64,000 nucleotides of DNA, taken from assembly GCA_964016885.1 (NCBI GenBank), contig OZ024746.1:48670001-48734000 (forward strand), read 5' to 3'. Shown piece after piece: positions 8,215 through 48,490 of this stretch. The stretch is from Eledone cirrhosa. Its lineage: Eukaryota. A program made the position numbers and the translations under genes. Below the pieces are notes generated by a model that saw nothing but the letters and a program-made list of their open reading frames with translations, made no database searches and had not been told where the DNA came from. Numbering within the stretch: position 1 is the first letter of the stretch; every line of letters begins with the position of its first letter.

Positions 8215-8640
8215 ACGATATTAAATAAATGGAAACTATATTTATAAAACCATATTTATTTCATTATATATATTTCAGGGATATCATATTAAAAATATGG
8301 TATGCCTTCATCAGACAAAATACAATATAAACAGTCTTATAAATAGATAGATTTGACATACCTTACACTTCAACTTCCATTTAAAAAGTTGATTTGGTAG
8401 TGAAAAATGTTAGGGACAGTTATAGAGAAAACAGAAAGAAAGAAAGAAAGCGAAGAAAAAGAAGAAATGCATGCAACGAAAGACAGAGAGAGATAGATAT
8501 AGAGAGATAGATAGAGAGAAGAAATTCATGTAAAGAAAAAACAGAGAGAGATAGATAGAGAGAGAAAAAACAGAGGGAGATAGATAGATAGAGAGAGAGA
8601 GAAAAGAGAGAGAGAGAGAGAGAAAATAGAGAGAGATAGG
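8215..8640 (-). mobile_element. 3' terminal (pLTR) segment of Naiad-like PLE 'B', displaced by inversion
   Basis: Near-identical to 14267-~14697 (offset about 6052); contains a hammerhead; ends in (TA)n. Confidence 0.85.
8257..8322 (-). ncRNA. Type I minimal hammerhead ribozyme (PLE B)
   Basis: Minus strand reads tattttgt CTGATGA aggcataccatatt-tt-taatatgatatccct GAAA tatata TA atgaaata, with a long stem II, palindromic stem III and pairable stem I. Confidence 0.8.
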
Positions 8641-9048
8641 GTTAATCTTTTTGTAGATGGCAAATTTTGGTGGTAGCTGCAGGATTTGTTGTTCTTGTTC
8701 ACTGATTAAATTATTCCCATAAATATTTACTGTGTGGTCATTGATAAATTCTTCCGGTATTTTTACATCAGTCATACGCATATTTTTGATGTTATCTGGG
8801 TATTTTTGAGAATATTCTATTTTGATTTCTTGTAGTTTTTTTTCTATTCATCCATTCTAATTTCTTATTGAAATGCCTATTGCATTCGTTTCGGACGTAT
8901 TTCGTTTCACGTCGGGTGACGCTCATGAAGTCATCCCTTTCGTTTGGTGTGGTGAGATTTTGGACTTCCTTACCGTTAATGCGTTTCTGTCTGTAAAGTT
9001 CGTTGACTTTTGTGTATGTTGTTCTTTTCATATTAACTGTTATTGTGT
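8641..9048 (-). pseudogene. N-terminal fragment of the PLE 'A' ORF (inverted)
   Basis: Reads ...HFNKKLEWMNRK... and VNIYGNNLISEQEQQILQLPPKFAIYKKINP, the typical PLE N-terminal L.L.PKFA motif, which continues naturally into KTELEKCFTKIRW at 17518. Confidence 0.75.
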
Positions 9049-11150
9049 GTTTCTGCCCTAGTAGACCCATAAGAGGTAGAGCACCCACCATAACCTCAAT
9101 GGCAAAAAAGACTCCCATGGGGAGGTGGATTGGGAGGACCAAAGCTATACGGACCCCCCAAAACAATGATCAGGTAAGAAAAATGATCGCACATGCAATA
9201 GGGGCTAATATCAAAACTACCCTAAAGGGCCACATATTCAAGTTCAACGAGAAGATCTACACCCAAAATGAGGGAGCAGCCATTGGCGTCAGCATAGCTG
9301 GTGATGTTGCCAACCTTTTTATGGTATGGTGGGAAAGGAGACTTAAAGATCTCCTTAATGAGAGCTCCATAGACCTCATCATGTACTCTCGTTACGTAGA
9401 CGATATCAATATAGTTATAAGAACATCCCCACTAGAGAGCACTAACAAGTTTGATTTAGAACGTAGCACAATGGAAAGCATCCAGCAGATAGCTAATTCC
9501 ATACACCAGAGTATAACTGTAACTATCGACTACCCTTCCAAACACCCTAACAATAGACTACCTGTATTAGACACGGAACTCTGGATTAACACTATAGACG
9601 AGAGAGCCCAAATTCTCCACTCACACTATGCTAAACCCATGGCCTCCAAATATATGATACTCAAAAACTCAGCAATGTCCAGTAGTGCTAAGTTTAATAT
9701 TCTGATCGCAGATTTGGTACGAGTGATGAAGAATGTGTCCCTCATGTGCGACCGAACAGAAATGGAAAGACACATCCCACACTTCATCAACCGCATGCAG
9801 TTCTTTGGCTACAACCAAAGAGACAGAGTCAGAGTATACAAAGGAGCCATGGAGAAGTATAAGACCCTCATAGAACTGGACAAAAAAGGAATTTGCCCAT
9901 TATACAGGAGCAAATCATGGAGTAGCTTAGATAGGGCTAGACATAAGATAGGGAAAGCCACCTCATGGTACGACAACCAGAGATACCAGAGTGTCATGTT
10001 TGTGGACGCTACACTTGGAGGGAAATTAGCTAACCAGTGTAGAAAGGCCCTGAGAAAGACCCACTTAAAGATTAAGGTGGTAGAAAAGCCAGGAACCACC
10101 ATAAAATCCCTGATCAGCAAAACCTACCCTTTTAAGAAAACCCACTGTACTAATAGGAAATGTATCATATGTAAGGTAAATCCCCGGATAAACTGTAAAA
10201 CTAGAAACGTAGTCTATAGCATAAGATGTACAGAGGGTACTTGTAGAAACATGACAACAACATACATAGGCGAGACAGCTCGTAGCATAGGTGAAAGGAT
10301 AGACCAACACTGGGGGGAACTAAAATGACGAAAAAACGGGTCAGTACTATACGAACATGCCAGACAACAACACGACGGTAACATAGACAACATAGAAATT
10401 AGAATAATATCTAAACATAGAAATGACCCAGCAGATAGGCAAATCAGATAGGCCAGTGAAATAGAACTTAGAAGGCCAAGACTAAACAGAAAGAATGAAT
10501 GGAATAACAACAACACCCAAACAAACAACACTGACCTAAGAGAAGTATAAATAAATAAATAAATAGATAAATAAATAAATAAATAAATAGATAAATAAAT
10601 AAATAAATACATACACAAGCACAATAACAACAAACACATAAACACACACTAGTAAAGATAGAATGCATTAACCAATACACAGTCACCCAAACACGAACAC
10701 ACATCAAACAAAACACTATACACACACGCAAACGCATGCGCAAAGAAGACAAAATAAAATAAACAAACAAACAAATAAATATATAAACAGACTAAATAAA
10801 GATGGCGTAGACATACAATGTAACGGGAGGAAACAATAGCACCATTGACGATGTTGCAGATGTGCAACGAAAGAACTTTGATAAACTATATAAATGCGTT
10901 TGTGTCTATGTTGTATCTGTATTATTTTTGACCGTTGGTCAGTCAATGGCAACATTGAGGACCGAATAAATTAGATTACCGATATAAAAGACACAGAAGC
11001 GAAAAGCGAAAACCAACCAAACAGTGAGTGTGTTCTGTTATTAATTCTGGCAATATTACACAAATATGACCCTCCCCAAGTATAACAATATTTGTTTCGA
11101 CACACGATTTCATATAAAAAACTTCGCAAAACTAATTCATCGCCGTTATA
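9049..11150 (+). mobile_element. PLE 'A' 3' copy: RT C-half, thumb, Zn-knuckle, GIY-YIG, 3' UTR with hammerhead
   Basis: GAAIG, RYVDD, LPVLD, CxxxxCxxC, NVVYSIRC..YIGETARS..ERI.QH. The frame continues past TGA 10326 and TAG 10449 to TAA 10550. 9049-10261 is near-identical to 19106-20318. Ends at (TA)n. Confidence 0.92.
10836..10889 (+). ncRNA. Hammerhead-like fold with U3 core variant (PLE A 3' end)
   Basis: atagcacca TTGACGA t-gttgca-gatg-tgcaac GAAA gaac TT tgataaactat. Confidence 0.65.
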
Positions 11151-47400: not shown

Positions 47401-47852
47401 ATAACAGTGCAAACCTTGACTATAGTATGCATTAACCAATGTAGAGAAGCAATGCACAGCAAGATTATAATCTGTGTTACTAGGAAAAACAAAAAAAGAT
47501 TCGTTAGAATTTATATGTAATTACGTTGTCACCGTATACTGCATACGGTAAGTGAATTTTGCTATCAGCCTTCATACTATTTGGAATGCCTCAGGTAAAA
47601 CGAAGGGGATATATTATGGGATACGACGCCATCTTCAACTGTTTTTAAACGACGGCTGCATGGAAATCTCGCTGATGATCTGTATATCCAATATGGCATG
47701 AAACTATATTACGGAAATAAATACAGGCAATATATATATATATAGGAAGAGAGATGAAGCGAGTGAGAGAGAGAAGGATATATATATATATATATATATA
47801 TATATATATATATATATATGTGTGTGTGTATGTATATATATATATATATATA

Positions 47853-48490
47853 TATTTATTAAAATAACAGATTAAAGTTTAAGCAAAGAATCGCTGCTTT
47901 CACCCTTAACGTGATCTTCTGAAACTAACAAAGTCAATCTGTAAACGCAGAAGTGGATATTTCAAAAAACGTTGCAACCGGAGGAAGACAGGAAGACGAT
48001 ACTTTGGTTCGTGGAAACGTTCCCTGGCAAAGAATGGGAAAAAACGAATATAATACGTCATAAAAAGGAGCAGTGAAAAACAATTACGCGCAAAGTCAGA
48101 ACCACGTTTATGGTATAAAAGAGGTCGTAGACTAATGTTCTCTTAGGTGGTTCATAGAGACGTTCTCTGGCAATGAACGAAAAAAACGAAAAAACAACGT
48201 CATATGTGGAGCGTGGAGAACAAATGCACGCAAAGACAAAACCACGTAAATGGTATAGCAGAAGTCGTAGACTAAAATTCTAACTAGGAGACCGAATGAA
48301 TCTCCGCTTCAGAGTTAAGAACAAAGTAAATAAATACAATACAGAGGTAAGGGTGAAAGCAGCGATTCTTTGCTTAAACTTTAATCTGTTATTTTAATAA
48401 ATATTTGCTCTACGGTTCTTATATATTTGATATATATTTATCCTTATCGAGCCCTCTTTGGATTTTGGTCTTCAAATTTATTATTATTAC
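47853..48490. mobile_element. Inverted-arm 'AAGGGTGAAAGC' element with internal ~143-bp tandem duplication
   Basis: Minus-strand hammerhead at 47876-47926; plus-strand half ribozyme with extension at 48349-48490; diverged repeats at 48014-48140 and 48157-48281. Confidence 0.8.

Follow-up and report, generated by a model that had tools for sequence, protein, structure and literature searches.

Solo minimal hammerhead ribozymes (HHRs) of multiple families, found on opposite strands and derived from truncated Penelope-like retroelements (PLEs), were described by Cervera and de la Pena 2014 (PMC4209133). Among PLEs, Craig et al. 2021 (PMC8557442) distinguished Hydra elements, with CxCX5C, DKT/DKS and RW motifs, (TA)n insertion and canonical HHRs, from Naiads, which have an N-terminal endonuclease (EN) and lack canonical HHRs; a tail is often present at one end only. 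For a Poseidon element, Frangieh et al. 2024 (PMC11167929) reported that both strands are cut and extended, with a tail set by two internal start sites; ribozyme mutants still inserted in vitro. Retrozymes have been proposed as PLE-moved partners (PMC7229834; Li et al. 2026, 10.64898/2026.07.22.740005). We analyzed 64,000 nucleotides of Eledone cirrhosa DNA (assembly GCA_964016885.1, contig OZ024746.1, forward-strand positions 48,670,001 to 48,734,000), here called the window, in which a first-pass annotation had proposed a hidden population of hammerhead mini-elements inside (TA)n microsatellites. We consider it very probable that the islands between these tracts are repeated 3' ends of Hydra- and Neptune-type PLEs, together with two tandem units lacking an open reading frame (ORF), likely copied into (TA)n by a Penelope enzyme.

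Motifs were sought with a type I descriptor comprising CUGANGA or UUGANAA, GAAA and an NUH site, with stem I of at least 4 bp, stem II of at least 3 bp and one unpaired or mismatched base permitted at the stem II base. It gave 7 matches in the 64-kb window, against a mean of 0.4 (maximum 2) in 60 block-wise dinucleotide shuffles, none of which reached 7. A stricter descriptor with an obligatory paired first base of stem II gave 4 window matches only. In a genome sample of 60 stretches of 10 kb (600 kb, round coordinates, 13 contigs), 38 matches were seen, against 1–4 in five shuffles, so that the excess over shuffled sequence implied by the first-pass annotation is present in both. The sample density of 63 per Mb (95% interval 45–87) would correspond to about 180,000 HHR motifs (125,000–250,000) in the whole 3.0-Gb assembly, provided the 600-kb sample is representative. 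At 7 per 64 kb the window lies near this value and is roughly typical of the genome in HHR density. (TA)5 occurred within 300 nt downstream of 35 of the 38 sample matches, against a baseline of 15.8% for random positions. The window holds 119 (TA)n tracts and several PLE ORF pieces, and 15 of its 36 non-simple TA-bounded islands of 50–1000 bp contain part of an HHR family by our own site list.

The probability that these motifs are chance matches in AT-rich, low-complexity DNA is close to nil. Random matches do occur, since shuffles give 0.4 per window, the window match at 50497 is probably one and one or two sample matches appear to be others; the counts above, the tens to tens of thousands of exact copies, the complete absence of reversed-pattern matches and the stem II covariation described below already refute the chance reading for the families as a whole. 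No hammerhead family appeared among the best 150 of 183 rows when the window was scanned with Rfam cmscan, and an Rfam search of two short stretches, an intact family F copy and site 40985, matched no hammerhead model. Single-sequence minimum-free-energy folds were not used, as they did not recover the HHR fold for minimal motifs, as expected. The Rfam models thus miss the motifs; simple-repeat masking, by which the annotation expected the system to be hidden, should not remove families with thousands of copies.

All 18 sites named in the first-pass annotation carry HHR parts, at or beside the positions it gave. They sort into nine repeat families, where at least eight had been claimed. Copy numbers below are exact pattern matches genome-wide, which undercount old families; the reversed-pattern control was 0 for every family pattern.

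Family A: sites 8257, 14309, 31955 and 32158; 4,488 matches
Family B: sites 21079, 42890-42975 and 63630; 56,482 matches
Family C: sites 20843, 24900, 47876 and 48349; 27,864 matches
Family D: site 10836; 10,956 matches
Family E: site 43340; 364 matches
Family F: site 12840; 28 matches
Family G: site 40985; 27 matches
Family H: sites 21440 and 24592; 80 matches
Family X: site 26265; 1 match with the window's letters, 9 with those of a relative

The islands are therefore multi-copy in families A–H (27 to 56,482 matches), as the annotation presupposed. By the descriptor, five of the 18 sites are intact (8257, 14309, 21440, 24592 and 40985), and 31955 is near-intact with an A.C mismatch at the stem II base. 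Four others (21079, 42890-42975, 63630 and 48349) are 3' halves without CUGANGA. The description of the sites as type I HHRs or their 3' halves fits these, but the other eight have an altered core or stem: 10836 (U3.G8 and a weak stem I), 12840 (U16.1 replaced by A), 20843 and 47876 (U4A), 24900 (U4A and G5A), 26265 (U4C, stem I mismatch), 32158 (GAAA to CAAA) and 43340 (U3:A8 and A13C). The type I form, with stems I–III and blocks in the order CUGANGA, GAAA, cleavage site (C-G-S), is the usual form of families A, B, F, G, H and I. Among 56 distinct A-like motifs, stem II letters vary while pairing is kept: 403 of 448 cells are paired, compared with an average of 336 and at most 361 in 2,000 shuffles. 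The helix III hexamer of these motifs was TATGTA in 24, TATATA in 23, TGCGCA in 8 and TATCTA in 1, its outer letters being set by the search.

Upstream of their ends, families A, B, C, D, E, G and H, which make up seven of the nine, extend into PLE ORFs with a C-terminal GIY-YIG domain. Most of 20 inverted pairs, 2.5–6 kb wide and picked from the pattern-match lists, enclose such ORFs. The family A locus L125 matches window positions 14861-17518 and 14865-14145 at 94–96%, which confirms the annotated kinship of the mini-element at 31912 with the 3' end of a coding element in the window, PLE B. In family B, locus L131 is a partial tandem of HHR, 786-residue open frame and HHR. Reverse transcriptase (RT) came first and the GIY-YIG EN last in every parent ORF read. 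The Hydra-type CxCX5C linker was present in families A, B, C, G and H, with CxxC and CxH around E and N, and DKT or DKS and RW motifs were found wherever the ORF was read far enough; the motifs were read in A (L127), B (L131) and C (L140, L063), and on the EN side only in G (L212) and H (L236). The RWK motif occurs as RWR or RWC. In the family G relative L212, the Hydra-type EN lies upstream of the HHR. The Hydra-type families insert in (TA)n and carry the HHR near the 3' end. Families D, E and I have a CX4CxxC linker before the C-terminal EN and would be Neptune-type, a motif-based clade call, the linker being common with Nematis.

Three assignments were discarded. Naiad identity, which had been annotated for PLE B, was rejected on domain order, the parent ORFs having RT first and EN last, with Hydra CxCX5C or Neptune CX4CxxC linkers, in place of the Naiad N-terminal EN. 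A Neptune-like label for families A–C was dropped for Hydra on the criteria given in the accessible text of PMC8557442. Family I seemed ORF-less in 25 short loci, but its longer copies hold a Neptune-type ORF; because these short loci misled, an ORF-less call was taken to need a unit junction, as in families F and K.

Short copies have fixed 3' ends and variable 5' starts. A 5' core was nearby in only 5 of 30 family B 3' halves, and the family B 5'-part pattern gave 5,905 matches against 56,482 for the 3' pattern. Because seven families run upstream into coding PLEs, most islands are, as judged from sequence, 5'-truncated and often mirror-image insertion ends of coding PLEs. Their portrayal as short, unique-looking ribozyme mini-elements was overstated: the islands are repeated, sites 10836, 14309, 21440 and 24592 are ends of kilobase-long coding elements, and most islands are truncation products rather than working ribozymes, given that 12 of the 18 sites, or two thirds, carry a half or a mutated motif. 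The broader proposal of a multi-family, TA-associated, PLE-linked HHR set is borne out by the nine families, the proximity of 35 of 38 sample matches to (TA)n and the seven families entering PLE ORFs. Both of the origins it offered occur, as PLE remnants (A, B, C, D, E, G and H) and as putative non-autonomous partners (ORF-less F and the unlisted family K). Window copies of the PLE-derived families are as follows.

8257..8322, minus strand: intact family A minimal type I HHR with 8-bp stem I, palindromic AUAUAU helix III and predicted AUA cleavage site
8208-8639: family A 3' arm of 430 bp that holds the 8257 HHR
8997..10886, plus strand: Neptune-type PLE remnant of family D, RT and EN, HHR core at the 3' end
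10845-10886, plus strand: family D HHR core with weak stem I and a U3.G8 change private to this copy
11197..11263, plus strand: family C 3' half, absent from the first-pass list
14145..17518, plus strand: coding Hydra-type PLE B with inverted 5' arm; RT at 14810-15817, GIY-YIG region at 15818-16507
14309-14374, minus strand: intact family A HHR in the inverted arm of PLE B, which also carries the long tail
20826..20901, plus strand: family C 3' end with U4A core (CAGAAGA)
21068..21205, plus strand: family B 3' half with GAAA, stem III, GUC site, stem I 3' strand and ~80-nt tail
21246..24757, plus strand: coding Hydra-type PLE of family H with inverted ends
21448-21559 (minus strand) and 24596-24707 (plus strand): intact family H HHRs with long stem II
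24810..24966, plus strand: family C inverted tail and 3' end with decayed core CAAAAGA
31906..32353: family A mirror pair; near-intact HHR at 31955-32020 (minus strand, short end) and mutated copy from 32158 (plus strand, long end)
40572..40759, minus strand: second family E 3' end, off the first-pass list
40833..41050, minus strand: family G, with intact minimal HHR at 40985-41037
42803..42988: mirror pair from family B, both arms 3' halves, the one with a long and the other with a short end
43106..43527: family E mirror pair, a Neptune-type PLE 3' end; HHR-like motif with U3:A8 and GCAA replacing GAAA
47856..48490: family C mirror pair; U4A HHR at 47876-47926 (minus strand, short end) and 3' half from 48349 (plus strand, long end)
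63622..63669, plus strand: family B 3' half

The stretches 8208-11150 and 14145-20340 are nested or chimeric insertions in which family A ends meet family D pieces at AG or TC tracts; the family D pieces at 9049-10261 and 19106-20318 are 99% identical. Elsewhere in the genome, at locus L394 (G000:C1:14381400-14390700), three family D HHRs stand at 4.15-kb spacing in a 99.9% identical tandem, which may be taken as a sign of very recent family D activity.

Families end before (TA)n at one of two points, a short end or a long end whose extra tail is about 40 nt long in E, 80 nt in B, 90 nt in both A and C, and 145 nt in H. Divergent pairs combined one short and one long arm in 12 of 15 cases for A, 23 of 26 for B, 3 of 4 for H, 2 of 2 for E and 4 of 9 for C. 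The tail lies 3' of the predicted cleavage site and in L131 leads into the next ORF; the insertion template would therefore be tandem or uncleaved. By analogy with known PLE biochemistry, from which the nicking and priming steps are taken, the GIY-YIG domain would nick a TA tract on both strands, after which the RT would prime at two internal sites of this RNA, 3' of the ribozyme. Each cut end would then be extended, usually stopping early, and the two cDNAs would be joined back to back, so that most copies would be dead on arrival, often with half an HHR. The predicted HHR would be carried along as a passenger just inside the 3' end of the element, and its cleavage is likely not needed for insertion.

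Mirror islands might also form only once an element is in place, through fold-back repair or through recombination at unstable (TA)n tracts, which would then grow from the element ends and would not be targets. We judge this very unlikely. The junctions are near-perfect palindromes with short spacers and (TA)n is self-complementary, yet in 12 of 15 family A and 23 of 26 family B pairs each arm stops at a fixed point of its own, and among resolved pairs the two points never coincide; the tail, moreover, could not come from a fold-back copy of an inserted short end, and Hydra targeting of (TA)n is reported in the accessible text of PMC8557442.

The tails of families A (14180-14268), B (21125-21208) and C (48401-48492) each fold into a hairpin closed by RCUC/GAGY directly after the short end; that of family H did not give this fold. 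The hairpin of A, B and C is a possible RT recognition signal.

Several results weigh against copying of PLE ends into (TA)n as the general explanation. The remaining divergent pairs were unresolved or interrupted, bar one both-short pair in family C (L140), and family I pairs were much less regular, with one both-short pair. Covariation among copies, expected by the first-pass annotation and seen in A-like stem II, was weak in family B stem III, with little two-sided change among 45 distinct halves. No parent ORF was found in any of nine family X loci, and a sequencing-run search for family F showed no RNA run among the matches listed. Pfam gave only a weak RVT_1 match, in family D and below the cut-off, and solved structures (PDB) gave no match to the PLE proteins. 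The family B protein had 821 homologues at E <= 1e-30, without useful names. The PLE and clade assignments are motif-based because Pfam, PDB and homologue names gave little. The best 120 of the 821 homologues are mostly 38–43% identical, ~700 aa long and on 2.3–3.5-kb contigs, which suggests that the Hydra clade may be far larger than described.

Families F and K are built differently. About 9 of 20 family F loci run from unit end to unit start without an ORF and hold 1.1–1.6 copies of a ~630-nt unit; F is likely a non-autonomous partner of PLEs. Family K, present in the window at 30920, 31459 and 33814, lies inside the range of the first-pass annotation and off its list. It has 8,712 pattern matches genome-wide and forms ORF-less tandems of 520–740-nt units in up to 9 copies, the largest array (L395) having ~740-nt units. 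ORF-less head-to-tail units with one HHR each were found in F and, with a permuted motif, in K, and not in A–E, G, H or I. Their window copies are:

12284..13188, minus strand: family F unit (~630 nt), ORF-less partial tandem
12836-12920, minus strand: family F HHR with long helix III; U16.1 to A in the window copy
30826..31489, minus strand: family K, off the first-pass list, ORF-less partial tandem with 539-nt period; HHR blocks in S-G-C order at 30905-31015
33740..33841, minus strand: truncated family K copy with G and C blocks only

This layout, which matches the non-LTR retrozyme pattern described in the accessible text of PMC7229834, raises the alternative that the islands are separate small ribozyme elements replicating as self-cleaved circular RNAs (retrozymes), with a distant PLE tie. 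It would account for tandems that lack an ORF, exceed one unit in length and carry a single ribozyme motif in each unit, for the unit-end/unit-start junctions in about 9 of 20 F loci and the 9-copy K array. As an explanation of the islands as a whole it is improbable, fitting only one of the nine listed families, plus K: seven of the nine continue into coding PLE ORFs, short copies begin at variable 5' points and most of them lack a whole ribozyme. Under copying by a Penelope enzyme, F and K would likely borrow the same PLE enzyme, as proposed for non-LTR retrozymes.

The family K blocks were modeled on an alignment of 29 of 45 rows, after exclusion of 7 that lack GAAAT at its expected position and 9 that are truncated or rearranged. 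In a seven-helix model with S-G-C block order, 95.2% of cells are paired and 12 of 35 pairs are changed on both sides. None of 500 shuffles reaches this, and slid controls gave 28–48% pairing with 2–4 two-sided pairs. Further pair types were no more numerous than in shuffles (413/500), and the model was drawn from the same sequences, which fall by eye into ~4 subfamilies, so independent events are few. Across the 29 copies, stem I is 96.6% paired (4 of 7 pairs changed on both sides) and stem III 95.9% (1 of 5). Stem II has one direct pair only, U-A in 24 copies, U-G in 4 and unpaired in 1 (the window copy); the rest of each stem II strand pairs with an upstream segment in a predicted four-way junction. 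Position 17 is A or C in 29 of 29. The window copy is the most divergent K, supplying several compensatory pairs and breaking some, including the direct stem II pair. Family K thus resembles a type-SGC HHR in layout, and a ribozyme is predicted.

We also put forward, tentatively and with slightly less than even confidence, a joint proposal. Family K would be an active, non-circularly permuted (S-G-C) HHR that forms stem II through a four-way junction, in an ORF-less retrozyme of which Penelope enzymes would have placed at least 8,700 copies in TA repeats, and it would be the first ribozyme of this kind in an animal genome; the short-long rule would reflect a PLE dimer that primes the two cut ends from different sites on a single tandem RNA.

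Changed catalytic cores occur in several families. The invariant type I core is not conserved in families C, E and X. Because CAGANGA occurs in 16,643 family C copies and CUGANGA in 56, family C was amplified carrying a U4A core. GAAA was found in 0 of 37 family E copies, and CCGANGA is frequent among the nine relatives of the old family X, whose window copy (26265..26386, plus strand) has a CCGAUGA core and a stem I mismatch. The family B core is mostly U3:A8 (36 of 49 rows), with C3.A8 in 9. Work by Lunse and colleagues from 2017 on PLE hammerhead dimers reportedly may cover some core variants. Such changes may be either tolerated or carried because cleavage is dispensable; the second option fits Frangieh 2024.

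Other features of the window include a further PLE end, additional HHR families and unrelated repeats.

31609..31815, minus strand: family I, off the first-pass list, with intact minimal HHR (core 31760); Neptune-type PLE 3' end, 6,523 matches
33543-33727: 3' halves of a further common family, arranged as a mirror pair, with 22 distinct copies among the loci examined and intact forms in L255, L268 and L303
53830-54315, minus strand: family J, an intact-looking HHR (core 54178) missed by the first-pass annotation, with relatives in many loci
40101-40472: pyrimidine-rich minisatellite with periods 26, 35 and 61, adjoining a degraded ORF-like stretch at 39709-40320 (minus strand)
894-1119, 1833-2034, 6297-6538, 13698-13937, 29189-29935, 43920-44454, 49552-49740, 52830-53204 and 58655-61779: SINE-like interspersed repeat of ~200 bp, with ~20 window copies at 72–94% identity and >100 matches in the 600-kb sample

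The main finding is an unusually rich case of known Penelope biology, and its value lies mostly in its use as a resource. The first-pass description of a hidden new system was too strong, since Cervera and de la Pena 2014 and Craig 2021 describe a matching one: published work already covers solo and opposite-strand minimal HHRs, cores with U3:A8, tails at one end only and TA targeting by Hydra elements. Interest remains in the scale, in the core changes that became fixed, in the pairing of short with long ends and in family K. A single genome offers ~180,000 estimated HHR motifs missed by Rfam, and its young families with near-intact ORFs (L131; L394) are well suited to studies of the PLE insertion mechanism, which is still an open question. 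Families C and E, which spread with a changed core, are natural tests of the need for the ribozyme, and the short-long rule constrains the priming model. If K cleaves, a ribozyme topology known only from metatranscriptomes moves into an animal repeat. In the literature covered, which includes subscription journals only sparsely, we found no account of cephalopod-genome HHRs beyond Craig 2021, of SGC HHRs in animals or of two-ended PLE priming.

Among known systems, the PLE pseudo-LTR minimal HHRs of PMC4209133 are alike in their palindromic minimal helix III, many families per genome, mostly solo truncated copies, opposite-strand pairs 100–700 bp apart and U3:A8 core variant. They differ in number, 4,000–9,000 for coelacanth and Xenopus against ~180,000 estimated here, and several of the present families have a long stem II or true stem III. 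Fixed U4A and A13C cores, as seen here, are not mentioned in the accessible text of that report. The Hydra clade of PMC8557442, including Hydra-1_Obim, shares with our families the short single ORF with RT then GIY-YIG, the CxCX5C, DKT/DKS and RW motifs, CxxC/CxH around E and N, the HHR near the 3' end, (TA)n, the inverted 5' copy and the one-end tail; likeness to Hydra-1_Obim was judged by eye. The present genome contains five or more Hydra families, whose end copies number up to 56,000, and tails of 80–150 nt compared with the 30–40 bp described; the HHR row for Hydra-1_oBim in the supplement differs, by eye, from the families here. Neptune-type PLEs in the same report resemble families D, E and I in their C-terminal EN, CX4CxxC linker and DKG or DKS motif, and differ from family E in that E carries GCAA instead of GAAA.

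Poseidon PAc of the green anole (PMC11167929) is similar in its AT-rich target, two-strand cutting and extension and two internal RT starts. It belongs to another clade and, in the accessible account, shows no strand difference in start site, whereas in the present pairs each of the two sites is nearly always used by one arm. Animal non-LTR retrozymes (PMC7229834; 10.64898/2026.07.22.740005) are like F and K in having ORF-less tandem units with one HHR each. The units of F and K, known here from DNA alone, are 520–740 nt long rather than ~300, are mostly present in 1–2 copies and end in (TA)n. With the type-SGC HRIMA-1 (Eckert et al. 2023, PMC10085705), family K shares the S-G-C order of its blocks (cleavage site, GAAA, CUGANGA), a linker of 4 nt that joins stem I to the stem II side, and a further helix adjoining the other stem I strand. 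The accessible part of PMC10085705 reports no SGC RNA from a known organism, whereas K is a genomic animal repeat, and stem II of K comprises one direct pair and a predicted four-way junction in place of a plain helix.

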